DNA of 64,000 nt from an uncultured Chloroflexia bacterium (GCA_963835655.1 CAWIGJ010000003.1:305016-369015); one strand, 5' to 3'; positions 1,963-38,138 are shown, numbered from the stretch's first letter. The notes: generated by a model not told the origin, from the letters alone. Numbers and translations are program-made.

Positions 1963-1973
1963 CCGGGGGGCGC

Positions 1974-3026: not shown

Positions 3027-3043
3027 GTGGGATTGGAGATTGG

Positions 3044-4186: not shown

Positions 4187-4198
4187 GGGAACGGCTTT

Positions 4199-5365: not shown

Positions 5366-5601
5366 CTTTGCCCCTTAGAACCTCAACGCCTGCAGAGTAT
5401 TTTAGTCTTGTTGCCGGGAAAAGGGAATGCCTAGCGCGATTGACCGCTCCAAGGACGGCGTCTAGATTATGATCAGTGTCGGTGGGGGAGCGGTACATTT
5501 GACGGTGTTCAAAGATTTCGCGGTAGAACTCGACGCAGAAGAGGTACGTCGTCTGATCCAGCAGCGGCGGGAGAGGCTGCCAGGACGCCTGGATCGAGGT
5601 T

Positions 5602-14200: not shown

Positions 14201-14404
14201 GAGGCAGGCCTTGTTGGCGTCCAGCAGGTTACCCTTCCCATCGTATATCTCAATGCCGATGGGCGACTCGTTGAAGAGGATCCGGAAGAGGCCCGCTGCT
14301 GTCTCTATGTCGTCGTCAAGGCTGTTGCGGGTAGGGATCGGTCGCAAGACAGGGCGGTGCGCTCCAGCCTTTTCAGTTTGTTCTGTCGTTGTTTTTTTGG
14401 CCAT
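11267..14404 (-). CDS. Hybrid sensor histidine kinase fused to complete OmpR-type response regulator (PAS repeats, HisKA, HATPase_c, REC, winged-helix)
   Basis: 1045 aa; multiple PAS-like segments, H-box (THELKTPL), ATPase G-boxes, receiver (VLAVDDE...DLVLLDLRLP...KPF) and C-terminal trans_reg_C (TYILTERQIGYRMVKE). Confidence 0.85.
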   Translation of the reverse strand: MAKKTTTEQTEKAGAHRPVLRPIPTRNSLDDDIETAAGLFRILFNESPIGIEIYDGKGNLLDANKACLDIFGVSKVDDVRGFKLFDDPNVSKQAKAALRRGERVSYEAPFHFEKVKAAGLYPTNRSGAIQLNVVLAPLGAKRDGGMKGYLAQVQETTRLSRAEEAERGLIEEVGRGKEQIAHLGTSLRAEPDLLEVIMENTRAHLAYLDADFDFVKVNTTYAEGSGHSVESLIGKNHFDLFPDAENQVIFEKVRNTGKPVEFRAKPFQFADQPQRGITYWDWTLIPTKDVRGRVQGLVLSMLDVTDRVRAEQAVRESEKRYRQLVESLQEGVWAIDEEGFTTFVNPRMAEMLGYRIEDMMGKHISSFITEEDLPSALEHLELRKKGVAEHLDLELRRRDGTVIHVAIESSPLFTDQGKYMGALAGVVDVTHERAIQEQLRDSEGRFRLLAENATDGIYRFRLDPPGYEYVSPAMTALFGYEREEWLADPDLDHKIVHPDDQALIDRMRVPSGTLTGPVMLRCHNRAGTPMWIEHHNAPIWDENGNVVAIQGIVRDVTERVQSMEEIERLRSDFLGMVTHELKTPLAAIKGSAATALGSSRPLDHEEVREMFQIIDEQADRMRDLADNLLDMSRIEAGSLSVKAEPLDLRAAIEEARSIFTRSGRPQRVEVEMPETMPQVNADRRRLVQVLTNLLNNAAKFSTATAPIKISVVHDALLATVRIKDTGQGIAPEKLPLLFQKFSQVNDSKAARASGAGLGLAICKGIVEAHGGRIWAESEGEGKGATFVFTLPLAAETEVEAPPAATGPTTTAGIRKSARPRVLAVDDELPVLRYLQHSLDEAGYQCVVTSDPSQVVKFMELQQPDLVLLDLRLPGVSGFDLLARIREFSGAPVIFLTASDSSEDTVRALKLGADDYVTKPFAPSELLARIEAALRRRSLPGMSEARAPFKVKDLEINFAERRVILAGKEISLSATEYKLLYELATHSGLVLTFDQILQRVWGAEYAGETELVRSFIRNLRRKLNDDAKQPTYILTERQIGYRMVKE

Positions 14405-14548
14405 TTTTCTCTATCTGCGCCGTCTAGGGGCACTTTGTTGAAGGCTCAAGCGGATGCGGCGCTCATTCACCTACTATTACTATACGTAGCAGAACAACAC
14501 CACCTGTATCAGGTTAGCACTCACGTCATCGCACGGCAAAACAGGCCG

Positions 14549-16114
14549 CTACGTGCGATCGCCGGAGGCGACGGGAAGCGTGAAGCTCACGGTCGCTCCT
14601 TCGCCTTCGCCGGGGCTATCGGCCCAAATGTGACCTCCGTGAGCTTCGATTATTCCCTTGCAGATGACAAGCCCCAGCCCCGTTCCGCGGCCACCGCTTT
14701 CATGGACCTGCGTGAACTTCTTGAAGAGCAGCGGAAGCTTGTCTGCGGCGATGCCGCGTCCCTGGTCGCGCACCTGCACTATCACCTGATTGTCGTTGGG
14801 CTGAGCGGTGATGGCTATCGGCGTCTCAGGAGGCGACGCCTTCGCCGCGTTAGTAAGCAGGTTCATCACGACTTGGACCACGCGCCGGCGATCGGCGTAG
14901 ACGGGTGGTAGCGACGGCGGCATGACGACCTTCACCGGGTGGCCGAAAGCGCTCCGGTCGAACGTCGACACGGCTTCCTCGATTACCTTCGAGAGCCGTT
15001 CGGGTTGCGGGTTTACGGACAGGGAACCGGCCTCGATGCGCGTCATGTCGAGCAGGTTGCCGATGAGCTCGCGCAGACGCTCCGCCTGTTCATCGATCAC
15101 GGTGAAGAGCTCGCGCGCCTCGGCGTCGGACGGCGGCGTTCCGGACGTGAGGGCCATCGACGTGGATCCCTTTATAGCGGTCAGCGGCGTCTTCAGCTCG
15201 TGGCTGACCTCGCCCAGGAACTCGCTGCGCGTCCGCTCCAGCTCCTCTTCGACGCGTCTGCGCTCCGTCAGGTCGACGACGAAGCAGACCCAGCGCAAGG
15301 GCGCCTGTTGAGTGGCCGCAGCGCCGATGAGGATGGGCACGCGAACGCCGTCCTTGCGAATGTACTCCTTCTCATAGGCGACGGCTTCACCGGCGGTCTC
15401 CAGCTCTCTGAGGGCGCGTTCATCAAGGTGGGTATATTCAGGGGGCGTCATTGCCCGCCAGTTGAGGCCGCCGCTAAGATCGGCCCGCTCATAGCCGATG
15501 ATGCGGAGGAAGGCACCATTGGCGTCGACGATGTTGTCGCCTTCGGCCTCGAGGATGCCGATCAGGTTGGAGTCGAAGAGACGCCGGGCATAAGCCTGCG
15601 ACGTTCGAAGCTCTTCCGCCTTCGCCATCTGCTGCTGGTGCAACCAGACGGAGGTCATATAGGCGGAGAGCTGGCCGGCGATGACCGAAAGTAGACCCAA
15701 GTCGGTCTCGTCGTAGGAGACCTCCTCGTTGGCGCCGACGAAGAGGAGTCCGATTATCTTGTCGTTGCCGATCAGAGGCAGGCCGAGGTAGGAGCGCCAG
15801 GGAACGACGGCGGCCAGAGGAGGAGCGGGTTTGCCGGAGAAGCCGGCGAAGGACGGGTCGGTGATCATGGCGAGGCAGGAGACCGTCGCCAACTCGAGGG
15901 CAGCGACGTTCTTCTTGGTGGTCTCCGGGACGACGACCAGCTCCCGCTCGCCGTCCTGCGCTTTCAGCAGCACGCACTCGTCATAGGGCACGACGCGGTT
16001 GAGGAGCTCCAGCACACGCCGCTCGCGCGCCTGCGGGTCATCCAGCGATTCGAGGAGATGCGCCGAGTCGTTCAGGAGACGCAGCGGCAATTGAAGCGAC
16101 GTTCTACCAACCAT
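14549..16114 (-). CDS. Sensor histidine kinase with GAF and PAS domains
   Basis: 521 aa; H-box (SHELKTPLTAIKG), HATPase_c motifs. Confidence 0.85.
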   Translation of the reverse strand: MVGRTSLQLPLRLLNDSAHLLESLDDPQARERRVLELLNRVVPYDECVLLKAQDGERELVVVPETTKKNVAALELATVSCLAMITDPSFAGFSGKPAPPLAAVVPWRSYLGLPLIGNDKIIGLLFVGANEEVSYDETDLGLLSVIAGQLSAYMTSVWLHQQQMAKAEELRTSQAYARRLFDSNLIGILEAEGDNIVDANGAFLRIIGYERADLSGGLNWRAMTPPEYTHLDERALRELETAGEAVAYEKEYIRKDGVRVPILIGAAATQQAPLRWVCFVVDLTERRRVEEELERTRSEFLGEVSHELKTPLTAIKGSTSMALTSGTPPSDAEARELFTVIDEQAERLRELIGNLLDMTRIEAGSLSVNPQPERLSKVIEEAVSTFDRSAFGHPVKVVMPPSLPPVYADRRRVVQVVMNLLTNAAKASPPETPIAITAQPNDNQVIVQVRDQGRGIAADKLPLLFKKFTQVHESGGRGTGLGLVICKGIIEAHGGHIWADSPGEGEGATVSFTLPVASGDRT

Positions 16115-17012: not shown

Positions 17013-19550
17013 ATGCCTCAGAGCCGACCGTTTCATGCTCTTCGTCCCGAAGCGGAGCCCGCCATTCGGCCTCCTTTTGAAGTGGGCCCGGAGGAGAAGA
17101 AGTGGCGGCAGTTCCACGTCCGGCGCTACAGGCGCTTTCGAAGTCATCTGTCGCTGAGATCGTATTCGCCGCCGCGGGTCATGATCCTCTTCGCCGTGGC
17201 GCCGCTGTTGATCGCGCCGATCATCGTCGCCTTGGGCGGGATGTTCTTTCATTATTACAACAGCGTGGCGGGGAGTATCATTCCGCCGGACGAGGCGATT
17301 GCTCTGAACGGTGGCGGGGCACGCATCCTCGACCGGAACGGCAACCTCCTCTATCAGTTCCTCGATGACAAGCACGGCTTCCAGGAATGGGTCTCGTTGC
17401 AGGACACGTCCCCGTGGATTCAGAAGGCGACGATCGCCGTGGAAGACCCGGACTTCTACTCCAATCCGGGAATCAGCATACGCGGACTGGCGAGGGCTGT
17501 CTGGGAGAACCTGGCGCCGGGCCACGACCTGATGGAAGGAACGGGCGGTAGCTCGATAACGCAGCAACTTGCAAAGCAGCTGTACTTCACACAAGCGGAG
17601 CGCGGCGAGCGAACGGTTAGCCGCAAGGCGCGGGAGATGGCGATCGCGCTGGAACTGACGCGCCAGTATAGCAAGGATCAGATCCTCGAATGGTACCTGA
17701 ACATCATCCCCTACGGTAGCGTGTACACGGGGATAGAGGAGGCTTCGGAGCGCTATTTCAGCATCCCGGCGTCGGACCTCAACCTGGCGCAGGCAGCGTT
17801 CCTGGCCGGCCTGCCGCAATCGCCGTCGCGCTATGACCCGATAACCAATTTCGCGGCGGCAAAGGACCGGCAGATAGAGGTGCTGGACCTGATGGTGAAG
17901 CACGGCTTCATCACGCAGACGGAGGCCGATTGGACCAAGTTCGCTGACCTCCAGTTCAATCCGTCGCTGATGCCGTTTGAGGCGCCTCATTTCGTAATGT
18001 ACGTCGCTGACTACATCCGGGCGACCCTGGGCGAGGACGCGCTGCTGCACGGCGGACTCGTCGTGCAGACGACGCTGGATCTCAACCTCAACAACAAGGC
18101 GCAGCAGTTGCTGGAGCAGCACCTGAGCGAGAACGAGTCGTACACAAACGCGCACAACGGCTCGGTCATTGTCATTGACCCAAAAACGGGGCAGATACTC
18201 GCCATGGTCGGCAGCCGCGACTATTTCCGGGATGACATCGACGGGGAGGTGAACAACGCTCTGGCGGTGCGATCGCCGGGCTCGGCGTTGAAGCCTTTTA
18301 CCTACGTGACGGCCTTCATGCAGGGGTGGAGTCCAGACTGGCCAATTATCGACACTCCTATCAACTACGTAGACCTTGACGGCAAGACGTTCAGCCCAAC
18401 CAACCCCAGCAATGGCCAAACGTACGGTGTGATTCCCGCCCGAGTGGCATTGGGGAACTCTCTCAACGTGTCCGCGTTCAAGACGATCCTCTGGGTGGGC
18501 GCGAACAACATGATCCAGACAGCGAGGGCGATGGGTATTACCACTCTCGATACGAACCTTGGACCTGACGTCACGCTTGGCGGCGGGGATGTGAAGCTCA
18601 TTGACCTGACATATGCCTACAGCGTTTTCGCAAACGGCGGCACGATGGCCGGCGCGCCGACTATCCTTTCGTTGCCGGAGGGGAGCCGCAGACTGGACCC
18701 GATTTGTGTCCTGAAGGCAACCGACTCAACTGGCAAGGTGCTCATCGACAATACAGTCTCGCAGACTCAGCCTGTCATCAAGCCAGAATACGCCTACATG
18801 ATCAGCAGCATTCTCTCAAACGATGACGACAGATCACTGACATTTGGAACCGGCAGCGTTCTGAACATTCCCGGCTGGCAGGCGGCAGTGAAGTCCGGCA
18901 CGAGCGAGCCGTTCGAGAACGTCAACCCGGCCGATGCGGCGATGCACTATACGGACGACACCTGGTCCGTCGGCTACACGAATGACGTGGCGGTAGGGGT
19001 CTGGATTGGCAATAGCGATAACAGCCGCATGCAGCACATGTACAGCACGACTATCGCCGCGCCGCTCTGGCACGATGTGATGCTGGCGGCGCTGGAAGGC
19101 AAGACGCCGACGAACTTCGTCCAGCCGCCTGGACTGGTGCGAGCGACGGTCTGCGTCCCCAGCGGCATACCGGTGACTCCGGGAGTGAAGTGTCCGAGCG
19201 TCACCGGCCTCTTCGCCTCGGATGCGCTGGCGATTGAGGCGACGAACCACTGGGGCGGAGAGGAACTCAACGGGTTGGTCTCCGCGAACGTTTGCTCCAC
19301 CTGCATTCCAAACCAGATTCAGGGCTGGAAGCGTTACCTGGCGATGGAGTATCTGGGGCGATACGGTGGATCATATTCGACGAATGCGTCGGGCAGTTCT
19401 GTTTCAACGCCTCGGGCGACGACGAATGGCGTTCCGCAGGTGCCCACATCGCCCCCTGCGGCCGCGACGCCTGTGCCACAACCGACACAGGCGATCCCGG
19501 AGGTGCCGACGCCGATGTACTTCCCGCCTATAGGGAATTACAACCATTGA
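17013..19550 (+). CDS. Penicillin-binding protein 1A (bifunctional transglycosylase/transpeptidase) with Pro/Thr-rich C-terminal tail
   Basis: 845 aa; GT51-like motifs (EDPDFY, RKAREMAIA), transpeptidase-like SxxK/KSGT; N-terminal TM anchor. Confidence 0.85.
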   Translation: MPQSRPFHALRPEAEPAIRPPFEVGPEEKKWRQFHVRRYRRFRSHLSLRSYSPPRVMILFAVAPLLIAPIIVALGGMFFHYYNSVAGSIIPPDEAIALNGGGARILDRNGNLLYQFLDDKHGFQEWVSLQDTSPWIQKATIAVEDPDFYSNPGISIRGLARAVWENLAPGHDLMEGTGGSSITQQLAKQLYFTQAERGERTVSRKAREMAIALELTRQYSKDQILEWYLNIIPYGSVYTGIEEASERYFSIPASDLNLAQAAFLAGLPQSPSRYDPITNFAAAKDRQIEVLDLMVKHGFITQTEADWTKFADLQFNPSLMPFEAPHFVMYVADYIRATLGEDALLHGGLVVQTTLDLNLNNKAQQLLEQHLSENESYTNAHNGSVIVIDPKTGQILAMVGSRDYFRDDIDGEVNNALAVRSPGSALKPFTYVTAFMQGWSPDWPIIDTPINYVDLDGKTFSPTNPSNGQTYGVIPARVALGNSLNVSAFKTILWVGANNMIQTARAMGITTLDTNLGPDVTLGGGDVKLIDLTYAYSVFANGGTMAGAPTILSLPEGSRRLDPICVLKATDSTGKVLIDNTVSQTQPVIKPEYAYMISSILSNDDDRSLTFGTGSVLNIPGWQAAVKSGTSEPFENVNPADAAMHYTDDTWSVGYTNDVAVGVWIGNSDNSRMQHMYSTTIAAPLWHDVMLAALEGKTPTNFVQPPGLVRATVCVPSGIPVTPGVKCPSVTGLFASDALAIEATNHWGGEELNGLVSANVCSTCIPNQIQGWKRYLAMEYLGRYGGSYSTNASGSSVSTPRATTNGVPQVPTSPPAAATPVPQPTQAIPEVPTPMYFPPIGNYNH

Positions 19551-19652: not shown

Positions 19653-20504
19653 TTAGGGCGACGACGCAGGCCGTCGTGTACGTTCTTGCCGCGCGGCAGT
19701 TCGTGGTTGCTCCTCTGTCAGAGAGCAGATCGCGCCGGGACGTCGGACTATCGGAGCCAGGGTTTCCACGATCGCGAAGTCCAGCATCTCCTTCGTCGGA
19801 CCGATAAAGGCGATCGTCATGTCCTGTCCGAGGGCGATCGAGGCGTAAATACGACCGGTATTGATTATGAGACCTCCGGTCTCCAATACCGGTGCCTTGA
19901 ATACGCCTTCCGTCGCTATCGTCTGCACCTGCTCCAACTCGCTAAAGGCGCCGATCGGGTGGCGGCGGTAAAGCTGGTCATAGCGCGTGGGCGATAGGAC
20001 AAGGGCGTAGGGTCCGTGGAAGCCCGCGTTGTCGAGGATCGTGACGCCGGTGATGATGTCGCCGGCAGCGGTGCCGAGATCATCCCAAGCGGCCAGGGCA
20101 TGTGTATTGATGCCCTCGTAGCAGAGGAAGCCGGGCAGCGGCGGCGGACATCCCTGTAAGAGAACCTTATCCTCGTGCTGAGCGGCGCGGATCGCAGCGT
20201 CGATGAGCGGATTCAGGTTCAGCGGCAGGCCGTCCCGTTCATAGGCCGCGAGGTCGCGTTTGCTGAGCGAGAACGGCGTGGCGATGTGGGACAAGGGGAT
20301 CGAAGAACTGGCATATACGTCTTCTTCGATCTCTATGTCTTCAAGCGGCACGGACTTCAGGCCGAACCCGTAGGGGCCTTCGATGGACAATATGCGTCGG
20401 GCGACCAGGACGCTTCTGGCGGCCTCGACCATCGCGGCGTCCATGACCTTCCAGGTTTCCGGCTCAATGGGAGCGTCGTCTCTAAGCAGGTATCTGTCGT
20501 TCAT
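19653..20504 (-). CDS. Family 1 encapsulin shell protein (linocin M18-like)
   Basis: 283 aa; N-terminus MNDRYLLRDDAPIEPETWKVMDAAMVEAAR... resembles HK97-fold encapsulins. Confidence 0.85.
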   Translation of the reverse strand: MNDRYLLRDDAPIEPETWKVMDAAMVEAARSVLVARRILSIEGPYGFGLKSVPLEDIEIEEDVYASSSIPLSHIATPFSLSKRDLAAYERDGLPLNLNPLIDAAIRAAQHEDKVLLQGCPPPLPGFLCYEGINTHALAAWDDLGTAAGDIITGVTILDNAGFHGPYALVLSPTRYDQLYRRHPIGAFSELEQVQTIATEGVFKAPVLETGGLIINTGRIYASIALGQDMTIAFIGPTKEMLDFAIVETLAPIVRRPGAICSLTEEQPRTAARQERTRRPASSP

Positions 20505-20540
20505 CAGGCTCCTCCTTAAGCGTAGTTGCGCTTGCGCTCG

Positions 20541-20900
20541 TTACTCCTTCAACGAGCCGATAGTCATCTGATTCTCGACGGCGTCGGTCTGCGGCATCCC
20601 TTCCGCGGCCGCCATTTCGTTGACCTCCTGTGCCCCCTCAGCGTGGGTGGTATCTTCCTCGCCTTCGGTAAGGATGCTGAGCAGCCGCAGGAATTCGCCC
20701 GAGTGCACCCGCTCCTCTCTCGCGATGTCCAGCAACACCCGTTTTACGAAGGGATTGTCCGTTGCCTCAGCTTGGGCAGTGTAGATGTGCGTTGCCTCTT
20801 CTTCCGCTGCTACGTCTAGCCTGATGGCCCGGATTAGTTCACCCAGTGTGAGGCTCCGCTCCGAAACCATTCCTCGGAAGGGGTCGACGAATTCCGGCAT
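20541..20900 (-). CDS. Encapsulated ferritin-like protein (EncFtn/Flp cargo) with C-terminal targeting peptide
   Basis: 119 aa ferritin-like (E..H motifs); C-terminus ...MTIGSLKE matches encapsulin cargo-loading peptide; directly upstream of shell gene. Confidence 0.8.
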   Translation of the reverse strand: MPEFVDPFRGMVSERSLTLGELIRAIRLDVAAEEEATHIYTAQAEATDNPFVKRVLLDIAREERVHSGEFLRLLSILTEGEEDTTHAEGAQEVNEMAAAEGMPQTDAVENQMTIGSLKE

Positions 20901-20936: not shown

Positions 20937-23692
20937 CTAGCCGTGCCGCTCGGCAACGGCGGCCTCTGGCTTCTCGGCCAGCAAGCGGCCGAGGTCGTGC
21001 TTCGCTTTCAGTATTTCTTTCCACGGATCGCCAGTCCTGGCGAGGCGGTCCGGGACGTTGATAATCGTGAAATCCGTCGGGTAGACGCTTGCGAGTTCCT
21101 CCCACGACAGCGGCACGGCCACGCTTGCGTCCGGCGAAGGCCGCGGCGAATAGGCGGAAGCCAGAGTCTTGCCGCGCGAGTTCTGGTTATGATCGAAGAA
21201 GACCTTTCCCTTGCGCTTGCGCACCGACCACTCCATCGTGATGTCCTGCGGGTGCTGCCGTATCAGATAGCCGCCGACGGCTCCGGCTGCGGCGCGCACG
21301 GTGTCGTAGTCAAAGTGGCGGAGAATGGGCACGTAGATGTGCAGTCCGGTTCGGCCCGAGGTCTTGACGAACGGCGTCAGCGAAAGCGACATCACTGCCT
21401 CTCGCAGCCAGTACGCAACCTCCCGTGTCTTCGCGAAGGCGGCGCGATTTAGCTCCGGCTCGTCGCCCTCCTTCTCTTTACCTGAATAGAGATAGGGTCC
21501 AAGTCGAAAACGATGTAGTCCGGGTAGTTGAGCGCGGAACCGCGTATGTTCTCCAAGGAGCCGGAGAACTTCGTCGTCAGGTGCTTTCCATCCGGTTCCG
21601 GGTCGACTCGTGAGTACCAGGTATGTAGTTCTATGTCGGCGATCTGGCCAAGCCAGAGGAGCGTCGGCAGGTTGTTGCAGAGGAGGTACTCCCGGTCGCC
21701 CTCCGTGTCCGAAAACAGCAGCACGGTATCGACGAAAGGCGGCAAAGGATCCGCCCAGTGCTTCTGAAAGAAGCTCTCGCCGTAGATGCCGTCCGGGTAG
21801 CGCTTGAGGGTCAGCGGCCGGTCCTTGATATGTGGTAGGAGCCAGGGCGAAACCTTTGTCAGGTAGACCAGGAGGTCTAGCTTGGTCAGATCGCGCTGCT
21901 TTCCCTGGGCCGGCCAGAAGACCTTGTCGAGATTGCTGAGCTCTATGCGATGGCCTTCGACGTTCAACCTCAGCTTGTCCTTCGCCGCCGAAAGCTGCTC
22001 GAGAACGTCTTCGATCGCCTTCTTGCCCTTGGCTGCTTTCGGGCCCGGAGGGTCGTCGTCGCGATGTTTTTTGCCTTCTGAGGGTGTGGAAACGACTGCC
22101 ACGCGCTCTGTCTCCCTTGCCGGCTTGTCCTCGCGGAGGCGCACGAACACCGGCGCGCGCAGGCGGCCGTCGCCGGTCCGCTCAGCGAACTTGACTTCGG
22201 CCACCAGTTCTGGCTTCACCCATGTCGCTTCGGTGCGGCCGCTGACTTCGCCGCTGAAGGGCGACCGTTCAGTCCGCAGTCCATCCAGCTGCCTTCGCAA
22301 CTCCTTGAGCAAACGGTCGTCGAAGCCGGTGCCGACGTGGCCGGCGTGGCGTAGTTTCCCGTCCTTGTCGTACTGGCCGAGGATGAGCGCGCCGAAGGTG
22401 TCGTCGCGGGCGCCGGTGCCTTGGCTGAAGCCGCCTATCGTGAACTCGTCGCTCAGGGTCGCCTTCACTTTGAGCCAGAGCCGCGAGCGCTCGCCGGAAC
22501 GATACTGGCTGTCGCGGCGCTTGGCCATCACGCCCTCCAGGCCGTGTTCCACAGCCGCCTCGTAAGCGGCCTCACCCTCTTCCGGGAACTGGTCGATGAG
22601 TCGCACGCGGTCGCTGGTCACTAGCGTTCGTTCGAGCTGCCTTCGACGTTGCTCGAAGGGCACGGCACGGAGGTCGTAACCGTCGCTATAAAGGAGGTCG
22701 AAGACATAGTACAGGACGGGTATCTGCGCGTCGGCGCGGCGGATGTCAGGCTCTTTCTGGAGGTTCATCCGTTGTTGAAGCCTCTGAAACGAAGGCCGCC
22801 CTTCTCCGTCCGGCGCGACGACTTCCCCATCGAGGACCATCTGGCCGGGCTGGCCGGTTAGTTCCTCACCAAGGGACGGATAGGTCCGCGTCACGTCCCT
22901 GCCGCCCCGCGAGATAAGCTTCGACTTGCCGTTGTCGATCAGGGTAATGGCCCGCAGTCCGTCCAGCTTTGGCTCGAACACCCAATCCGGATGCGAAAAC
23001 GGCTTTTCGGCTAGCGTCGCGAGCATAGGCGCGACGGTGTTGGGAAATGGCGCCCTGCGGGCTCCCCGAAGATCGGCGACGGAGTGGGATTCTGCCGGCA
23101 TCTGCGACGGACGCGCGCCTTCCCGTAGGTCCTCCACCGTCAGCCCCGAAACGACCGACCGGTCCTCCTTCAGGACGTCGCGAATCGGCGTATCATCGCG
23201 GTGCTTGATGAGGAGCCAGTCCTTCTCGCCGCGCTTCGACTTTACGAGCGTCCAGGATCCTCTCAGCTTCTCGCCGTCGAGGACAAAGCCTATTTTGCCT
23301 TCAGATAGACCGCGACGCATCAGCTCCTCGCCTTCGCCGCGCTGGAACGTCCGGCGTCCTTCTTCTTCCGGCGCGTAGCTGCCATGATCCCAGATGATCA
23401 CCTCGCCGGCGCCGTACTCGCCTTCCGGGATCACGCCTTCGAAGTTGCCGTAGTCCAGCGGATGGTCTTCGACCATTACAGCCAGGTGCTTGTCGTTCGG
23501 GTTCAACGACGGCCCTTTCGGAACGGCCCATGATTTGAATGCGCCGTCAACCTCCAGACGAAGGTCATAATGGAGGCGTCGGGCGTCGTGCTTGTGGATG
23601 ACGAAGCGAAGGGGCCCACTTGACCGCCGGGCGCGGGGCGCCGGTTCAGAGGTCTTCTCCAGACGCCGCTTTTTAGCGTATTCGTCGAGCAT
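20937..23692 (-). CDS. ligD: Multidomain ATP-dependent DNA ligase LigD (phosphoesterase-ligase-polymerase) with apparent frameshift near 21440-21480
   Basis: ORF 21449..23692 encodes PE domain (HYDLRLE), ligase domain (EPKLDGLRA) and start of Pol domain; remainder of Pol domain (FVKTSGRTGLHIYVP...DHNQN) is in ORF 20937..21395 in another frame. Confidence 0.8.
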
Positions 23693-25663: not shown

Positions 25664-26045
25664 TGTCACATGCCTGCCTGCTTTGCAACCTCTAATAATC
25701 ATCGGAAAACGTCATGCAACGCCCGTGATTATCGAGCGGTGATCGGTGAAGAATTCATGAAGAGAAGAAGCAAAATGAATAATCGCCTTAACAGAAGATC
25801 GCCCGAAGCGGACATTCATGCTCGCATGGACCATGATGAGGCGGACGGCACGGTATCGCCTTGTCCGGCTTAAGCCGCCAGCGTCTCCATGACCTGCTGC
25901 CTGCCTGTCGAGCGCCTGCGCCTTGATCGCCTTCCTAGCGGATGCTACTATCGTCGAGGCTAAAGACGCTGGCCACGGAGGGGACCACCCCTCTTTCTTT
26001 TACTGCCGAAACGGCCGCGTCTTGCCGGAGTATGCTGTGGCTGAG

Positions 26046-27041
26046 ATGACGAAGCGAGAGCGAGTAACGGCAGCGCTTGCCGGCGATGATGTTGACCATG
26101 TTCCCGTCTCCTTTTGGAGCCACGGTTACCTTCGTGAATGGTCGCCGTCTGATCTGGCCGAGGCGACGCTGGAACGCTACCTCCGGTTTGACTGGGACTT
26201 CGTCAAAGTCAATCCGCGAGCCAGTTACTATGCCGAAGCTTGGGGTAGTCGCTACGAGCCATCAGGCGATGCGCTACATGGCCCGGTGAACGTCGACTAC
26301 GTATTGAAGACCGCGCGCGACCTGGATAGGCTGGCGCCGGTAGATGTCCACGAGGGGCCGTTCGGCGAGCAACTGGCGGCGCTGCGGCTTATCGGCGAAA
26401 AGCTGACCGGAGACGCGCCTTTCATCCAGACCATCTTCTCGCCGCTGGCGGTCGTTGCTCGGCTGGCAAACGGTGATCTGGGATTCATCCGGCGATTGAT
26501 GCGCGAAGCGAGCGAGGCGTTGCATAGCGCGCTCGACGTTGTGACGCAGACGCTGGCGGACTATGGCAAGGCCAGCCTTGACGCCGGAGCCGATGGCATC
26601 TTCTTCGCCACCGTTGAATGGGCGACTTATGACGCGGCGACGCAGGAGCAGTACGCCGAGTTCGGCCGGCCTTACGACCTACGCGTGCTTTCGGCCGTTT
26701 CGGAAGCGCCGTTGAACGTTCTTCATGTCTGCCGGAAGCACAACATGCTGGAATCGATGCTCGACTACCCGGTCGCAGCCTTCAACTGGGCGGCGAACGA
26801 GTCTGGAAATCCATCTCTGGCCTCAATTCTAGAGAAGAGCGATAAGGCAGTGATGGGAGGCGTCGCCGTCAGCACCGTGAGCGAACGGACGGCTGGAGAG
26901 GTGACGGCGGAAGCCGAGGCGGCGCTGTCGGAGACGTCCGGCCGCCGTTTTTTGCTGGCGCCCGGCTGCTCCATCTCGCCGCAGACGCCGGAAGCAAATC
27001 TGCGGGCAGCGCTCGCGGTGGCCCGTTCGAGGCAGCGATGA
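26046..27041 (+). CDS. UroD-family protein (paralog 4)
   Basis: URO-D family-like; probable start MTKRERV within ORF 25923..27041. Confidence 0.7.
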   Translation: MTKRERVTAALAGDDVDHVPVSFWSHGYLREWSPSDLAEATLERYLRFDWDFVKVNPRASYYAEAWGSRYEPSGDALHGPVNVDYVLKTARDLDRLAPVDVHEGPFGEQLAALRLIGEKLTGDAPFIQTIFSPLAVVARLANGDLGFIRRLMREASEALHSALDVVTQTLADYGKASLDAGADGIFFATVEWATYDAATQEQYAEFGRPYDLRVLSAVSEAPLNVLHVCRKHNMLESMLDYPVAAFNWAANESGNPSLASILEKSDKAVMGGVAVSTVSERTAGEVTAEAEAALSETSGRRFLLAPGCSISPQTPEANLRAALAVARSRQR

Positions 27042-29862: not shown

Positions 29863-31936
29863 CTACGACGCCTTCGCGTCCTCTTTCGCCTTGTCGATGA
29901 TCTTCTGGGCCAGGTGAGCCGGCACCTCTTCGTAGTGATCGAACTCCAGGGTGTAGTGGCCGCGGCCCTGAGTGATCGACCGCAGGTCCGTCGCGTAGCG
30001 CTGCACTTCCGCCAACGGCACCTGCGCCTCGATGACGCTGTAGCCGTCCTGCGGCGTTATCCCCAGCACCTTGGCGCGCTTGCTATTGAGGTCGCCCATG
30101 GCGTCGCCCGTGTTCGCCTCGGGGACGGTGACGCGCAAGTTCATGATCGGCTCGACGAGGATGGGCTTGCCCTGGTTCACTCCCTGCTTCAGAGCGGCTG
30201 AGCCGGCGATCTTGAACGCCATTTCCGATGAGTCGACCGGGTGCTCCTTGCCGTCGAACAGTGTGACCTTCACGTCGACCAGCGGGTAGCGGGCGATCAC
30301 GCCCTCCTGCATCGCCTCCGACACGCCCTTCTCGACGGCCGGGATGTAGGTCTTGGGCACGACGCCGCCGACGATCTTATCCTCGAACTGAAAGCCGCTG
30401 CCACGAGGCAGGGGTTCGAGCTTGATGGCAACGCGGGCGTACTGACCGTGACCGCCGGTCTGCTTCTTGTGCGTGTACTCTGAGGTTGCGGGCGCGGTGA
30501 TGGTCTCCTTGTATGGCACCTTCGGGGTAGTCAGCTCAAGGCCGACGCCGAACTTGCGCTGCACCTTCTCGACGGTCACCTCCAGGTGCGGCTCACCAAG
30601 GCCGGAGAGAATCGTCTCGTTGGTGTCGGCGTCACGATGGACGCGCAAGGTCGGGTCTTCCTCGACGATACGGGTGAGGGCGCTGCCCATCTTGTCGAGG
30701 TCGGCCTTCGTCCTGGGATGGACGGCGGCGCTGAAGGCGGGCGTCGGGAAGGTGATAGGCGGCAGGATGAGCGGCCGCTCCTTCGTCGCCAGAGTATCGC
30801 CGGTCGAGGTCTCCGCGAGCTTGGCCAGGGCGCCGATGTCACCGGCGGCCAGTTGCGCGACGGGCTCCTGCGTTTTCCCACGCAAGACGAAGAGCTGGCC
30901 GATGCGCTCGGCGGTCGCCTTGTTCGAGTTCCAGGCCGTCGAATCGCCCTTCAGGGTGCCGGAGTAGACGCGCAGGTAGGTCAGCTTGCCGACGTAGGGG
31001 TCGGCGGCGGTCTTGAAGACGAGAGCCGCCAGCGGGCCGGAGGCATCGGCTTTGACCTCCTCTTCCTGCTTGGTGGAAGCGTTCTTGGCCCTGGCGGGCG
31101 GGCGCTCCTTGGGCGAAGGGAAGTAGCTGGCGATGGTGTTGAGAAGCGGCGCGGTGCCGATATTCTTCGCGGCGGCGCCGGTGAGCACGGGGACGATGGC
31201 GCCGGATGCGATTCCCAACCCGCAGGCCGCGCGTTAGCTCTTCGTCGGAGAGCTCCGTGCCGTCGAGGTACTTCGTCAGGAGCTCGTCGTCGGTCTCGGC
31301 GACGGCTTCGACGAGCTGCTCGCGGTAGCGGGCGGCCTGGTCGGAGAGGGCGTCGGGAACGGCGCCTTCGGTCGCTTTGTCGCCGGAGTAGGCTTTGCCA
31401 GCAAGGATGTCGACGACGCCGGTGAAGGTGCTTTGGGCGCCGATAGGCACCTGGACGGCGACGCACTTCTTGCCGAAGCGCGACTGCACCTGGGAGAAGG
31501 CCTGGGCGAAGTCGGCGTTCTCACGGTCCATGCGGTCGATGAGGACGGCGCGCGGGAGGTCGGCCTCGTCGGCGAAGGCCCAGCAGTGCTCGGTGCCGAC
31601 TTCGACGCCGGATGAGGCGTCGACGAGGACGAGGGCGGCGTCGGCGGCGCGAATGGCGGCCTTCATCTCGCCGACGAAGTCAGCGTAGCCAGGGGCGTCG
31701 ATGACGTTCAGCTTCCGGTTCTGCCACTCGCAGGGCAGGAGGGAGAGGCTGATGCTGATGGTGCGCTTGGCCTCGTCGGGGTCGAAGTCGGAGGTTGTGG
31801 TGCCGTCTTCGACGGAGCCGAGGCGGTTGATGGCGCCGGAGGTGAAGAGCATGGCCTCGGCGAGGGTGGTCTTGCCGGTGCCGCCGTGGCCGATGAGGAC
31901 AACGTTACGTACGTCCTCTGTCTTATAGTCTTTCAT
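29863..31936 (-). CDS. Elongation factor G-like translational GTPase (EF-G paralog) with apparent frameshift near 31220-31245
   Basis: N-terminal G-domain (GHGGTGKTT, DAPGYADF) in ORF 30839..31936; domains II-V (IASGAIVPVLTGAAAKN...) in ORF 29863..31218, shifted by one nt around a GGGAA run. Confidence 0.8.
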
Positions 31937-32207: not shown

Positions 32208-33072
32208 TTAGTGTGTTGGCATTCGGCGGCGAAGGGCGAGGCCGAAGGCGGTCGCGACAAAGCCCAAAGTGCCGAGCAGGAGGGCGAGACTGGCCCACGC
32301 AACACTCCCGGAGGAGGCAGTGCCGGTGCCGACGCTCGGCAGGCCTGCGCCGCTGCCGCCGACCGGCGCGAACGTCAGATTGAGCTGCTGCGGATCAGAC
32401 ACGCCATCCCAAGCATGCTACACGCCCGTCTCGTTGGCGACGGCGAGATATTCCCTTGTGCATCGAGGAGCTTGAACGCAACTTGCGATCCCTCCGCTCC
32501 GCAACTGGCCTGTTGCGCATTTGAATACACGATAGCCCCATACCCATCGCCGGTGGGAGCTAGCAGCGCGTAGCCACACGCGGTATTCCCGATGTAAGGT
32601 ATAACCGCTTCGGCGGTAGGCACCCTATTGGGCCCGAGTTTCCCGCCGAAGCGAGCGAAGGCAGCGTCCCGCAACTAGATTGAGGAACTGCGTGCCGCCG
32701 GCGTGCCATATGGCCGTTTGCGCAGCAGATTGATCAACGAGGAAATCGACGACGGCTCCCTCTTTACCGCACCCGGGTACGATCTCATCGGATACCACCT
32801 GTAGTGAGTACACGGGAACATTGCTGTCGGGGCCGAAACCCGCGACGAGGGCTCGCTGCAGACGAGTCCACCGATCTTCCCACGATGGGGCCAAGCGAAG
32901 TGTGGGCATTAAGCCAGGCTGTGCCCGTAAAGGTTGCCAGTTGTTGGGAAGTGGGGGTCGGTGGCGTTGTTGGGGTTGCGGCGGGCTGTTGCGTGAGAGT
33001 AGGCGTCGGTGTGGCTGCATGCGCGGCGGCAGCGATTGAGATTGAAGCTGCGACGGCGACTGCGAGGCACAT
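32208..33072 (-). pseudogene. Secreted two-domain LPxTG-type protein family, copy IV (disrupted by at least 3 frameshifts and one TAG; proper anchor and stop at 32208)
   Basis: Signal peptide + TPTPT linker at 33072; domains PGCGKEGAVVDF...WHAG and ASCGAEGSQVAFKLLDAQGN...PQQLNLTF; C-terminus GLPSVGTG...hydrophobic...RRRMPTH-stop. Confidence 0.5.
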
Positions 33073-33179
33073 AGCGTCCGGATCTCTCGCGTAGCCGTCA
33101 TGTGACGACCTCCTTGTGGCTGTGTTTTCGCGCGGCGATGCTCAGTACTTCGTCGCCCGGCTGCTAAAGGCGAGGCCGG

Positions 33180-33940
33180 AGACGGTGACGGCCTCAGAGA
33201 ACCCAGCAGGAGGGCGAGGCCGGTCAAGAGAGAGGCTTCGGGCGAGCCGTCGCCGGTGTTTGGCAAACTGGCGCCGCTGCCGCCGACCGGCGCAAAGGTC
33301 AGGTTGAGTTGCTGCGGTGCTGAAACGCCATCCCAAGCATGCCAGACTCCCGTCTGGTTAGCGACGGCAACAACGTTGCCTTGGGCGTCGAGAAGTTTGA
33401 AGGTGACCGAGTTGCCTCCGGTGCCACAGCTCGCTTGCTGGTCGGTGGAATACACCACCGCCCGTAATTGTCCGTGTGTTATTCAGCGACGCATATCCGC
33501 ATTGAACGTTTCCTACATAGGGAACAATGACTTCCCCAGCGGGGAGTCTTGCGGAACCAGGCGCGCCCGTGAACAGGGCGAAGGAGGGACCAATTATGAG
33601 GTCGATATGCTCATCTTCTCCAGCGTGCCAGACGGCTGTTTGCGGGGCTTGTTGAGTGCCAACGAAGAAAGTGATGAGCGCCCCGTCGTGCCCGCAACCA
33701 GGCACTGCGTCTTCCGAAGGAACGGACAAGCTGTACACAGGAGCATTTGTGTCAGGAGGGGTTATGAAAGGCGCCTTTTCAAGCGCGCAAGTGGTACTTC
33801 CGATCTTGGCAGCAACGTCCTGTCTACAGGTGCGTTGCCACGCTGCTCCGAAGAAGCGGAGCAGGGGCGCAGCTAGAAGTGGGTGTGGCGTAGCTGCATT
33901 GAGGGCAGCGGCGTGGAGCGCAGCGTGGCGACGAGGCATA
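33180..33940 (-). pseudogene. LPxTG-type protein family, copy III (no own signal peptide; domain 1 and domain 2 in different frames; LPNTG anchor without stop)
   Basis: dom1 VPGCGHDGALITFFVG...WHAG (ORF 33358..34302 frame), dom2 ASCGTGGNSVTFKLLDAQGN...LNLTFAPVGGSGASLPNTGDGS (ORF 32625..33458 frame). Confidence 0.4.
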
Positions 33941-34794
33941 CGTCTGCGTTGTCGCCGGCGGTGTGTGCGCGCGGCGTGCCGCGCGCGCGGGGCGGGCGCG
34001 AGGCCGAGAGCGAGCGGAGGGCAGGCTCGCCCAGGGAAGGCCTTCGGGTGAGCCGTCGCCGGTGTTTGGCAAACCGGCGCCGCTTCGGCGCTGGTACCGA
34101 AGGTCAGGTTGAGCGGCGGCGGCTCGTTGATGCCGTCCCAGGCGTGCCAGGTACCCGTCTCATTTGCGACTGCGAAGACGTTTCCTCGCGCGTCAAGAAT
34201 CTTGAAGGTGACCTGGGCTCTTCCGTCCCGCAGCCAGGTTGCTGACTGGGGGAGAGAACGTCGGCCTCGTATCCAGCCGGACCCCAGTAGCCAAAACCGC
34301 ATCGTGTCGCGCCGACAAAAGGCACCAGCTGTGAACCGGGAGACGGTTGTTTCGACAAAGAGCCGTCGAAGCGGGCGAAAGGATTGCCGGCGACGAAAAA
34401 CATAAATTGCTGAGCGCCGCGTGCCAAGCAGCGGTCTCGACTGCCTGCTGGTCTCCTACGAAGAAGGTGACCTGGGCTCCTTCGGTCCCACAACCGGGCA
34501 CCACCTCGGCAGACGGCACTCTCAGCGTAAAGAGCAGCCGATTTGCCCGTCCGTGGGGACGACGGGATTCGAGTCGGTCGCACAGACTGTGTCACCCACC
34601 CTGGCCGTCATCGTCTGTCCCTGGCAGAGTTGGGCGTTGAGCCAGCAACTGCCCCTAAAGGTTGAGTTGATCAGGTGAGGGATGTTTGGCGGGGTTTGAC
34701 TGGGTGGAGTTGCGGCAGTTGCTGCGGTGATCGAGAGAACAAACGAAGCCATTCCGACAACGATTGCTGAAAGATGACCTAGTCTGGGCATCAT
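33940..34794 (-). pseudogene. LPxTG-type protein family, copy II (signal peptide at 34794; multiple frameshifts)
   Basis: MMPRLGHLSAIVVGMASFVLSITAATAATPP... then VVPGCGTEGAQVTFFVGDQQ...; FARFDGSL...PGCGTE; ...FKILDARGNVFAVANETGTWHAWDG...LNLTFG; LPNTGDGSPEG. Confidence 0.45.
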
Positions 34795-34887
34795 AGCTCC
34801 TCCAGGGGATGCGATTGCTTCGTTTATAAGAACGCTTTATTCGTCGAAAAGTTAACGCTTAGCGGAAAAAGATGATGTGGAGAAGCT

Positions 34888-35070
34888 CTACTCCTGCGAC
34901 TGGAACGAGCGCGTGGCAAGCGAGGGGCGCGCAGTGGCGAAGGAGGAGGCCGATGCGGTCGGTGCTGCGGTAGGAGTGGGCGTGGGCGTGGGCGTTGCGG
35001 CATTCGCAGACGTATGCGTAGACGCCAGCAAGAGTATGGGGGGAGCCATCAGTACTGCGGCAATTCGCAT
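34888..35070 (-). pseudogene. Truncated family member: signal peptide + TPTPTPT linker then stop
   Basis: MRIAAVLMAPPILLLASTHTSANAATPTPTPTPTAAPTASAS... 61 codons. Confidence 0.4.
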
Positions 35071-35087
35071 CCCGCCCTCCTTGGCCC

Positions 35088-35613
35088 TTAAGCTGACTTC
35101 CTTGACAGTCTCACCTGGCGCAGCTTCTCTAGGATCCACATGCGGGCGAGAGTCGTGGGACCGACGCCCAATTCGTGGGCCTCGCGTCGCAGTTCCTCCC
35201 ACGTGTCTGAAGGTAAGCGGACGGGGATGACTTTGTCGAGCGGACGCTTCACCTCGACCTTCACGACCTCGTCGGTCTCGCGCCAGGCGTCGCCCTCCTC
35301 GACTCTAATCTCTGCTTTCACGTCACTCACGTTGGTCTCCTGTCTCACGTCGATAGAGCCGGCGTCCTGGCCAGTCATCTGTCGCGCGGTGACGATTCTC
35401 CAAACGCCTCCGCCTCGATCCGCCAGGACAACCAGCAGGTAGCGTCCGGCTTCCGTCCGACTGAATACCTTGTATAGACCCTCGCGGCCTCGACGCACAT
35501 GGCGAAGAAGCGAATAGCAGGCCTCTTCCGCTTCATCAAACGTGACACCGTGCGCCGTCTCGATCTTGTCCAGAACCTGGTCGTCGATCTCAAGCGCTTC
35601 GATACGATGCACG
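35088..35613 (-). CDS. brnTA: BrnT (DUF497 RNase toxin)-BrnA (RHH antitoxin) module, apparently fused in one reading frame
   Basis: BrnT-like IDDQVLDKIETAHGVTFDEAEEA...GRYLLVVLADRGGGVWRIVTARQ continuing in frame into BrnA-like ...KVIPVRLPSDTWEELRREAHELGVGPTTLARMWILEKL; probable GTG start about 35613. Confidence 0.6.
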
Positions 35614-35635
35614 TCTAGCGCCTCTGGCTCATAGT

Positions 35636-35651
35636 GTATACATATGTATAC
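35636..35651. promoter_or_regulatory. Perfect 16-bp AT-rich palindrome GTATACATATGTATAC immediately upstream of brnTA
   Basis: Self-complementary; only strongly AT-rich block in the region; candidate BrnA operator. Confidence 0.5.
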
Positions 35652-35683
35652 ATCGTAAGGAGGATGCACCGACGAGATACCTG

Positions 35684-36139
35684 TTATGCTCTCGCCTTCT
35701 CGGCCTCGAGCTGGGCATAAACGGGGTTGCCCTTGCCTCGGTACCAGTGACGCATGTGCTGAGCAAGTGGTTCCGAGGACCAGGTCGCGGCAACGCACGT
35801 GACGCCCTGCTCCGCGAGGAGAGCGAGCAAGAAGTCGAGCTTGCTCTTGTTGGGGGCGAGCCGGTCAACGCGGTCAACGATCAGGATATCAAAGGCAGGG
35901 TCCGATAGCAGGGCGACAAGCCCCGGTCTATTGAGACCGTCGCTGGCCCAGCTCATGTCCTCGTGGATGCTCTGAAGCTGCCATTTGTGGGCCTCAGCGA
36001 AGGAGGAGATATGTGCCTCCTGAACGTGGGGCGGCGTCCGCTTCTTGCCCATCTCCTCGAAATCCTGCCTGACGTATCCGACGGCACGAGGCCTCCGCTG
36101 CCAGGCGCGTGGATCTGATAGCGTCCAGTTAGGATTCAT
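35684..36139 (-). CDS. Serine-recombinase (resolvase) catalytic-domain-like protein, short, non-canonical nucleophile position
   Basis: AVGYVRQDF...ASDGLNRPGLVALLSD...FDILIVDRVDRLAPNKSKLDFLLALLAEQGV resembles resolvase N-domain but YVR-QDF replaces the usual YxRVS(T/S); no HTH domain. Confidence 0.5.
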   Translation of the reverse strand: MNPNWTLSDPRAWQRRPRAVGYVRQDFEEMGKKRTPPHVQEAHISSFAEAHKWQLQSIHEDMSWASDGLNRPGLVALLSDPAFDILIVDRVDRLAPNKSKLDFLLALLAEQGVTCVAATWSSEPLAQHMRHWYRGKGNPVYAQLEAEKARA

Positions 36140-36292
36140 GGGTGCCCCAGCGGAGGAACGTCCGCGTGGCGAGTATCACGGCCGCGCACGCCATGCGCGT
36201 ACCTTCTCCAGTTTCCAGAAAGCAATGTTCAGGCCACGCTCCGCATCGGCGTACTGGACAAGAGGCTCCATGACAGCGCCATCTTACACCGT

Positions 36293-37182
36293 TCAGGCAG
36301 GTCCGCCAAAGCTCGGTGCTCCAGTAGTGGCGGAGGGGACGCGGAAGGCGGTCGCGACAAAGCCCAGGGAAGCCAGCAAAAGCGGAAGGCCGGCCCAGAG
36401 AGGCCCCCCGGTGGAAGTGCCGCCGGTGCCGGTGTTTGGCAAACCGGCGCCGCTGCTGCTACCGAAGGTCAGGTTTAGCTGCTGCGGCCCAGACACGCCA
36501 TCCACGCATGCATGTACCTGTCTCGTTCGCGACCGCAACGACGTTCCCCTGAGCATCGAGAAACTTGAACGTGATGGGCGCGCCTTCGACGCCACAGCCT
36601 GCTTTCTGTTGCGCAGAGTAAGCGATGTCAGTGTAGCCGACGAGCTGACCAATGCAGGGCGGCGGGAGTGCTTCATTAAACTCCTCGGTGCCACACGATG
36701 CTCCGTTTATGAGGGAACGACCGCCTCGGGCTCATGCAGGTCACAGGTGTGCTGCCTGAGAACAGGGAGAAGGCAACGCCCACGATAAGGTTCAGTTGTG
36801 TATCCGTGCCCGCATGCCATATCGCTGTCTGCGCAGCCTGCCGACCGTCGATCAAGAACGTGATCAGGGCTCCGCTGCCGCAGCCTGGCGTGATGCTGGT
36901 GGAGACAACATCGACTTGATACTTCAGCGGCGCATCTGCAATTGGGATGGGACCTCCTGTGCCGCAAACGACGCTGCCAATCTTGGCGACGATGGTTCCC
37001 CTTGATAGCTGGCTGTCGCCCCATGATTCGCCGTGGAACCGCGCGACCTGTTGGAGCGAAGGGGTCGCTGTCAATCCGGGTGTCGCGGTGGGTGTAGGCG
37101 TCGCGGCTCTGGTGATGTTGGTGACAGCTGCAAACAGTCCGACGGAGAGGGCCACGAGCACAAACGGAGACGGCTTTTTCAT
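36293..37182 (-). pseudogene. LPxTG-type protein family, copy I (own promoter/RBS, signal peptide; at least 4 frame changes)
   Basis: MKKPSPFVLVALSVGLFAAVTNITRAATPTPTATP...; dom1 ITPGCGSGALITFLIDGRQAAQTAIWHAG; dom2 GCGVEGAPITFKFLDAQGNVVAVANETG / VDGVSGPQQLNLTFGSSSGAGLPNTG... in three different frames. Confidence 0.5.
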
Positions 37183-37271
37183 CGCGCTCCTCCAGATCAG
37201 AAGATGCCTTCACTAGAAAGAACGTTATAGTCCAACCGACTCTTAGCGGAAAAAGACGATGCGGGGAAGCT

Positions 37272-38138
37272 CTATTCCTGCGACTCGAAGGAGCGCATGG
37301 CCAGCGACAGAACGACGGCGGCGAAGACGGCGAGGATGGCGACGTCGGCCCAGGTTCCAAGATGGTAGCTGCCGATCTTTATGCCCGGCGCCAGCACGGA
37401 GCCGAGCAGGGCGCGTCGCATGGGGTCGACGCCGTAGGCTACGGGGTCGACGCGCGTCAGCACGGCCATCCAGCCCGGCAGGCCGCGCAGGGGGAAGAAG
37501 GCGCCGCTCAGGAAGAACATGGGCATCACGAAGAAGTTGATGATCATCTGGAAGGACTCCATCGTCTGGAGCCGTGACGCGATGAGGATGCCCATCGACG
37601 AGATCGCGAAGGCGGTCAGGAACATGAGGGCGAGCAGCTCCAGGGTGTTGAAGGGGTTGAGGCCGACGCCGAGGATAGGCGCCAGGACCAGCAAGATAGC
37701 GCCCTGGAGCATCGCTATGGTGCTGCCGCCGAGGGCCTTCCCCAGGACGACGGAGGCGCGGCTGACGGGCGCGACGAGCAGCTCGCGCAGGAAGCCGAAC
37801 TCGCGATCCCAGACGATGGAGATGGCGCTGAAAATCGAGGTGAAGAGCACCGCCATCGCGATGATGCCGGGATAGAGGAAGCGGATATAAGAGACGTTCC
37901 CGAGTTGCTGCGTGACGCCCGCGCCCAGCGAGGCGCCAAGGCCGGCGCCGAAGACGATGAGGAAAAGAAGGGGTTGTCCCATTGAGGCGATAATGCGGGC
38001 GCGGTCGCGGGAATAGCGGAGGACGTCGCGGTACCAGATGATGTAGACGCCGCGCAGGTTGGCCTGGAGGCCGCGGCCGGGAGTCACGTCCATAGTTGGA
38101 GCCAGGGTTGCCATTAGCGCCTTCCTCCTCCGCCCCAC
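37272..38138 (-). CDS. ABC-2 type transporter permease
   Basis: 288 aa, 6 TM, ABC-2 family pattern; overlaps ATPase gene. Confidence 0.8.
   Translation of the reverse strand: MGRRRKALMATLAPTMDVTPGRGLQANLRGVYIIWYRDVLRYSRDRARIIASMGQPLLFLIVFGAGLGASLGAGVTQQLGNVSYIRFLYPGIIAMAVLFTSIFSAISIVWDREFGFLRELLVAPVSRASVVLGKALGGSTIAMLQGAILLVLAPILGVGLNPFNTLELLALMFLTAFAISSMGILIASRLQTMESFQMIINFFVMPMFFLSGAFFPLRGLPGWMAVLTRVDPVAYGVDPMRRALLGSVLAPGIKIGSYHLGTWADVAILAVFAAVVLSLAMRSFESQE

Follow-up and report, generated by a model that had tools for sequence, protein, structure and literature searches.

Proteins that sortases attach to the cell surface through an LPXTG signal (TIGR01167) combine a signal peptide and tandem β-sandwich domains, such as pilin/CnaB-type modules, with a C-terminal pentapeptide motif, a hydrophobic helix and an arginine cluster, and have peptidoglycan as the acceptor. 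The PEP-CTERM, PGF-CTERM, MYXO-CTERM and GlyGly-CTERM classes, which belong to exosortases, archaeosortases and rhombosortases, end in a family- and lineage-specific tripartite tail of motif, transmembrane helix and basic cluster. Transthyretin-like, CBM20 and CnaB-type β-sandwich domains are also among the closest known systems, as are the false pseudogenes that indel errors create in Nanopore-only assemblies. Here, we compare with these systems a tandem array of paralogous genes for small secreted two-domain proteins, located at 32208–37182 on the minus strand of a 64 000-nucleotide (nt) stretch of DNA from an uncultured Chloroflexia bacterium (GCA_963835655.1, CAWIGJ010000003.1:305016-369015; the whole stretch is called the window below). 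As a first-pass annotation of the window had noted, every copy in the array is disrupted as written. We are confident that this disruption of the frames is almost entirely a consensus artefact of long-read assembly, and that it mainly reflects lost bases and not decay of the genes.

The array consists of four full-length paralogous units, U1–U4, which follow one another in direct orientation on the minus strand between the gene of an ABC-2 permease (37272–38138) and a paralogue of EF-G (29863–31936). The units are U1 (36293–37182), the true product of which would have about 290–300 amino acids (aa); U2 (from approximately 33980 to 34794); U3 (from 33142 to approximately 33954) and U4 (32208–33101), which is preceded by the ribosome-binding site AAGGAGG. 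Several frame changes break each of them. The tandem arrangement of paralogues had been recognized by the first-pass annotation, together with the motif LPNTG, which is indeed found in U1–U3; U4 reads LPSVG instead. The copies are more diverged than the 85–90 per cent DNA identity stated there: in the segment covering domain 2 and the anchor we measured 71–80 per cent, and the proteins are 45–56 per cent identical. Judged from these sequences, U1–U4 are old paralogues and not recent repeats.

A database search with the reconstructed U3 retrieved a protein of 286 aa (P0001; 96% identity, 100% query coverage) encoded by L001, a 2.1-kb contig from the Logan short-read assembly of run ERR10755942 (ERR10755942_1575545). 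L001, which is independent of the window, comprises U2 and U3 in full and U4 as far as codon 75. When it is compared with the window (34857–32874) using a gap-tolerant aligner, 1973 positions match, and the differences consist of 8 substitutions and 58 indel events. At the substitution level, the two sequences are thus 99.6 per cent identical; 56 of the 58 indel events are deletions in the window and two are insertions, with a total loss of 121 nt. BLAST agrees, with 8 mismatches and 41 gap openings. A pairwise alignment of the two sequences with MAFFT was rejected, as it forced 87 mismatches where the other two programs showed deletions.

Both U2 (64–924) and U3 (972–1832) are intact in L001 and encode 286 aa each, and the portion of U4 is undisturbed. 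All three have a start and a signal peptide of their own, and U2 and U3 also have their own anchor and stop. The U2 stop is followed by a 47-nt spacer with a ribosome-binding site, and then by the ATG and signal peptide of U3. In the window, U2 differs from this intact form by 22 deletion events and one insertion event, and its TGA stop is destroyed; U3 has lost its ATG as well as bases of two G runs (33474 and 33464), and its tail is damaged at 33191–33187. Restoring the missing bases gives complete open reading frames (ORFs). The evidence indicates that at least three of the four array genes are functional.

About 40 of the deletion events crowd into one stretch of the minus strand, 33823–34023, which corresponds to the transmembrane tail and stop of U2, the 47-nt spacer, and the start and signal peptide of U3. 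Its 201 nt form a near-perfect subsequence of 300 nt in L001 (200 matches and one mismatch); in 200 shuffles, no more than 163 matches were obtained, and the score was about 20 standard deviations lower. The apparent lack of a signal peptide in U3 and its read-through from U2, both reported by the first-pass annotation, are explained by the approximately 100 bases missing here. The impression that only the last copy ends properly likewise arises because the tails of U1–U3 contain errors.

Between the window and L001, indels outnumber substitutions by about 7 : 1 and deletions outnumber insertions by 28 : 1. The four copies in the window contain a single in-frame stop. In neutral decay, substitutions would be no rarer than indels, insertions would be mixed with deletions, and nonsense codons would be present. 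To our knowledge, a ratio of about 7 : 1 with a 28 : 1 deletion bias is not a product of neutral decay, and we know of no bacterial mutational spectrum of this kind. Among the 13 isolated 1-nt deletions in the window, 11 fall in runs of at least two identical bases, compared with 47 per cent expected (p = 0.0065).

A second long-read assembly of the locus is provided by L002, a contig of 5.2 kb that bears a Flye-style name in the ENA assembly ERZ25039512 and encodes the family protein P0052. It spans exactly window positions 37224–32206, including an insert between U1 and U2 that is described below, and confirms the order U1, insert, U2, U3, U4. L002 is itself noisy, with 93 per cent identity to L001. 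In U1, the window has 1-nt losses at 36736, 36713, 36512 and 36504, an in-frame loss of 3 nt at 36874, and a garbled tail (36402–36323). Each of the four single bases is present in L002, the frame of which is maintained through all four sites, and so is the in-frame GAA at 36874, the codon for the conserved Glu in the motif PGCG-x-EGA. L002 is broken elsewhere, with a frameshift of its own in the tail of U1.

The array stands out against the remainder of the window. Frames were followed with a Viterbi model of codon usage trained on the long ORFs of the window. The model scores the whole array as non-coding, as expected of a sequence in which the frame changes every 100–200 nt; the other stretches scored in this way contain only small ORFs and spacers, and scans of the 64 kb for Rfam families and tRNAs were negative. 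Outside the array, two frameshifts were found in about 59 kb, a count to be taken as a lower bound, as the rule that treats a switch at an upstream stop as a normal boundary was too lenient and missed one of the two. The excess in the array, with 58 indel events in about 2 kb, is therefore far greater than the approximately 10-fold excess in frameshift density suggested by the first-pass annotation.

The first of these two frameshifts is in the EF-G paralogue, where one extra A in GGGAATC (31213–31212) produces ORFs of 365 and 451 aa. With this base removed, the protein is 96 per cent identical, without gaps, to the intact 690-aa EF-G of L003, a syntenic relative in assembly ERZ25039477; a search for an intact EF-G of the same strain found only this 96%-identical relative. 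The break is probably another consensus error. The second affects LigD (phosphoesterase, ligase and primase–polymerase domains; 20937–23692, minus strand), which is divided into ORFs 21449–23692 and 20937–21395. It was revealed by the splitting of a Pfam domain, Prim-Pol positions 1–109 being in one ORF and 131–254 in the next. At the break (21497–21495), the junction GACCCTAT reads GAC-CC-TAT where GAC-CCC-TAT restores the frame, so that one C of a run of four has been lost. L003 in turn has three frameshifts in 20.9 kb, in the genes for glutamine synthetase (490–1822), a response regulator (5072–5729) and TyrRS (13797–15109). None of these genes is broken in the window, and the two halves of the L003 glutamine synthetase are 99–100 per cent identical to the window protein. 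Since L003 breaks genes that are intact in the window, sporadic frameshifts are a general property of these assemblies.

The array locus and its closest relatives are found in long-read assemblies of the Microflora Danica (MFD) project with Flye-style contig names. ERZ25039512, the source of L002, includes contig_58588, which is OY970386.1 ('MFD03726.bin.c.14'), and the short-read run ERR10755942 is evidently from the same sample, since it carries identical proteins. The metagenome-assembled genomes (MAGs) of Microflora Danica derive from Nanopore-only metagenomes assembled with Flye and corrected with one round of Medaka (PMC12313526). The window would accordingly come from such an assembly (Microflora Danica; Flye plus one Medaka round, without short-read polishing). 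The errors in the array resemble those behind false pseudogenes in Nanopore-only assemblies: they are biased towards deletions, enriched in homopolymers, absent from short reads and specific to each assembly in their position, and lone frameshifts occur in conserved genes of both the window and a sister assembly. They differ in density. Events in the array number about 29 per kb, and a stretch of 300 nt has shrunk by about one-third, far above the background of the contig (two in 59 kb). This difference points to a cause specific to the locus, which we infer to be structural heterogeneity in the population.

Such heterogeneity is suggested by L003, which is collinear with window 22300–46349 at 88–91 per cent DNA identity. 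At the site of the array, it has one family gene and a resolvase remnant, as against the four genes and the insert of the window. The locus would thus be structurally polymorphic in the population, with one gene in a close relative and four here, and L002, which coincides exactly with the variable segment, has the appearance of an alternative-path contig. Reads from shorter or different alleles may have been piled onto the array, tipping the base-versus-gap decision in individual columns towards a gap. Such a pile-up would give deletion-only errors that are limited to the array and are densest where the alleles differ most.

Several observations weigh against an assembly artefact. The sequencing platform of the window and the gap-biased pile-up are both inferred. 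L001 could derive from another, closely related strain (99.6% identity), in which case the genes might formally be intact there and decayed in the strain of the window. Raw Nanopore reads of the current generation have an error rate far too low to account for the loss of about one base in three over 300 nt; a special heterogeneous pile-up such as the one proposed is therefore needed. At 71–80 per cent DNA identity, the paralogues are too diverged for ordinary cross-mapping of repeats. Short-read confirmation takes in little of U1 and U4. Finally, two lesions of U4, a TAG at 32420–32418 and an extra CG at 33076, are common to the window and L002, and U4 may be a real pseudogene.

The last point leads to a mixed case, in which U1–U3 are intact genes hit only by assembly error and U4 is a true pseudogene, its signal peptide being frameshifted and one TGG having mutated to the nonsense codon TAG; we regard this as a serious, if somewhat unlikely, possibility. 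The TAG was correctly identified by the first-pass annotation and replaces a Trp codon that is TGG in the other copies; U4 has also lost a G from GGGG at 32882 and further single bases. The presence of the TAG and the CG in both the window and L002 favours the mixed case, as does the motif LPSVG, which is off consensus. The shared lesions are either real or systematic long-read errors: the two sequences are both long-read consensuses, probably of one project, and can have systematic errors in common. The CG is absent from the short-read contig L001. The TAG lies directly 5′ of GCATGC, and the same context, TGG-CATGC, lost a G in U1; miscalling of G as A near methylated motifs is a known failure mode of Nanopore sequencing. 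As to the motif, PSVG is found in intact homologues, for example P0043. Short-read sequence does not extend to the TAG, and a scan of JGI metagenomes for the U4 segment with either TGG or TAG gave no matches.

The other explanations apply to the array as a whole. One is that all four copies have decayed in this strain, L001 and L002 being sister strains that are still intact. The lesions are after all present in the deposited sequence, the array is non-coding under the codon-usage model, L001 is not 100 per cent identical to the window, and the flanking EF-G paralogue is broken too. Decay is nevertheless very unlikely in view of the spectrum (8 substitutions against 58 indels, with deletions and insertions at 56 : 2), the 201-nt stretch that is a near-perfect subsequence of an intact allele, the enrichment of deletions in homopolymers, the different break sites in an independent long-read assembly and the lone frameshifts that hit conserved housekeeping genes in sister assemblies. 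The first-pass annotation had considered a decaying or variable cassette locus with expressed and silent copies, and this is contradicted by lesions that are absent from short-read L001 and differently placed in L002. It had also raised a collapsed or mis-polished repeat assembly, and this proposal survives in part: consensus errors there are, while simple collapse of repeats is improbable at 71–80 per cent identity.

The restriction of the errors to a tandem array of paralogues would suit a classical collapse or mis-polishing, with reads of one paralogue aligned on another in a mixed pile-up. We give this version little credence: not even the best-conserved segment of the paralogues is similar enough for reads of kilobase length to be placed on the wrong copy, three independent assemblies have the same number and order of copies, and the errors are densest in the least conserved parts (tail, spacer and signal peptide), not in the most conserved. 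Programmed or phase-variable expression, through recombinase-driven cassettes or slipped-strand switching, is suggested by a resolvase-family ORF inside the array and by a surface-protein family that differs in copy number between relatives. It has almost no probability in our judgement: the resolvase-like ORF has neither the catalytic Ser nor the DNA-binding domain and is conserved in that state in L003, all copies are in direct orientation, the break sites are runs of 1–4 nt and not long homopolymer or repeat tracts, and short reads contain an intact allele. The only inverted repeats near the array are imperfect and short (18–25 nt, 76–89% complementarity). Programmed frameshifting was ruled out on similar grounds, as slippery sequences and long repeat tracts are missing and the intact allele exists.

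Loss of bases during assembly thus remains the preferred explanation, and the array is a caution for the study of such genomes: counts of pseudogenes, 'silent cassettes' and phase-variable genes in Nanopore-only MAGs may be misled by regions of this kind. Error-dense regions may mark structurally polymorphic loci with a heterogeneous pile-up.

The gap between U1 and U2 is occupied by a 2.2-kb insert, also found in L002, which comprises a resolvase-like remnant, a BrnT-like toxin/antitoxin ORF and a fragment of 60 codons. The resolvase-like ORF (35684–36139, minus strand; 151 aa; Pfam PF00239, 34.4 bits) has the N-terminal domain only. The sequence GYVRQD replaces the catalytic motif Y-x-R-x-S, and there is no helix–turn–helix domain. 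The same remnant is found in L003 (9415–9783) with 82 per cent DNA identity. It is, as its sequence indicates, an old inactive remnant, since this reduced form is conserved in the relative. Direct repeats of the permease 3′ end and leader flank it in the window and in L003 alike. The neighbouring ORF of 236 aa (35088–35798, minus strand) joins a BrnT-like toxin (PF04365, 30.3 bits, below the cutoff of 34.5) to part of a CopG/BrnA-like antitoxin. Toxin and antitoxin of this type are usually encoded by two separate genes, and the fusion may be another artefact of base loss; the region is split differently in L002.

The 60-codon fragment (34888–35070, minus strand; repeat D5) encodes a signal peptide and the TPTPT linker. 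The fifth, truncated unit of the first-pass annotation amounts to this leader fragment, while its four full-length units were all recovered. In the fragment, this leader runs on into a degenerate second copy of the C-terminus of the ABC-2 permease (...SLATRSFQSQE*), to which it is fused. The permease gene itself, intact, forms the upstream boundary of the error-rich zone, the EF-G paralogue being the downstream one. Approximately the last 25 permease codons and the leader that follows are duplicated ahead of U2 (34796–34942 compared with 37182–37344), and a similar duplicate of the permease end and leader precedes the single family gene of L003 (9833–10101). These duplications suggest that the array and its insert arose by recombination at the permease-end leader.

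There is no Pfam or NCBIfam model for the protein family of the array, the domains of which the first-pass annotation had likewise been unable to assign. An exhaustive profile search found 1608 cluster representatives at E ≤ 1e-3, of which 127 are at E ≤ 1e-30. Some members have three or four domain repeats. The named members and the genome loci are from MAGs of Dehalococcoidia/Chloroflexota, often with several loci or tandem copies. For example, the 2.3-Mb Chloroflexota chromosome OY970386.1 has at least three separate family loci (L011, L012 and L015), and several short metagenome contigs encode two members, among them those of P0019/P0044 and P0049/P0062. Tandem or multi-locus expansion is typical of the family, which is of moderate size and lacks annotation; its members are secreted two-domain proteins of soil Dehalococcoidia, roughly 290 aa in length. 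It would deserve a Pfam/NCBIfam model.

The pattern of two domains with signal peptide, linker and tail that was proposed for the array extends to the whole family, as represented by an alignment of 58 members. The signal peptide, recognized by inspection of the alignment, ends in A-x-A and is followed by a Thr/Pro (TPTPT) linker. The two domains contain four invariant Cys in total (C70, C101, C166 and C191), PGCG motifs, and an invariant Trp in the motifs WHAG and WHAWDG; disulfides are predicted between C70 and C101 and between C166 and C191. HHalign identifies the two domains as homologues of one another (probability 99.3%, E = 2.6e-20), and both are predicted by sequence and model to be β-sandwiches. 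The C-terminal tail begins with a degenerate Gly-rich motif, [LMIV]-[PG]-x-[TV]-G-[TD]-G. After a polar spacer about 10 residues long come a Trp, a hydrophobic transmembrane segment and RRR. A helix is predicted at residues 256–285, and nearly all members end in RRR or RKR.

This tail resembles the LPXTG signal in its pentapeptide-like motif, hydrophobic helix and Arg cluster, and differs from it in the polar spacer between motif and helix. To call it an LPNTG-type sorting signal, as the first-pass annotation did, is an overstatement. The copies of the window type score 14.2–14.5 bits with TIGR01167, below the cutoff of 15.9, and other members have no match. LPxTG is found in two of the 58 members, both from this locus; 22 have a motif of the type MPxTG and 23 have no Pro. 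Strict LPxTG is, on these counts, not a trait of the family. The tail also recalls the tripartite PEP-CTERM-type tails, and one homologue was automatically named a MYXO-CTERM protein by JGI. It differs from these in its Gly/Thr-rich motif, spacer and conserved Trp, and the NCBIfam models of the PEP-CTERM/MYXO-CTERM-type classes gave no match at E ≤ 1.

No sortase ORF was detected in the 64-kb window by a scan for the TLxTC motif, and PF04203 is absent within 10 kb of the homologous loci L003 and L005. With no sortase or other sorting enzyme seen in the stretches scanned, the anchoring step is conjecture, which also tells against the overall interpretation. The window encodes a class A penicillin-binding protein with transglycosylase and transpeptidase domains (17013–19550, plus strand). 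On this indirect evidence, this Dehalococcoidia lineage appears to make peptidoglycan, so that sortase-type anchoring would be chemically possible; Dehalococcoides proper does not make peptidoglycan. The array proteins would be exported by Sec, displayed at the cell surface and held there by the C-terminal helix, possibly with cleavage at the Gly-rich motif by a sortase-like enzyme, and the pair of β-sandwiches would act as a binding or structural module. It is conceivable, but we consider it unlikely, that the locus is a copy-number-polymorphic island of surface proteins whose family carries, in the tail from the Gly-rich motif to RRR, an undescribed C-terminal sorting signal, processed by a sorting enzyme distinct from the classical LPXTG sortases. 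If the tail were a processed sorting signal, it would have a bearing on the cell-envelope biology of a poorly known phylum.

Among the other genes of the window, one for a rubrerythrin/ferritin-like protein (119 aa) lies immediately ahead of one for an encapsulin shell protein (Linocin_M18, 283 aa); the two, at 19653–20900 on the minus strand, are a typical pair of encapsulin and cargo. The frame tracker shows a blip of 25 nt in the gap between these two genes (20517–20541). There are also four URO-D/MtaA-like paralogues (1839–5365 and 25923–27041), which may be methyltransferases or decarboxylases; three of them are clustered beside a pair of Opp-type ABC permease genes.

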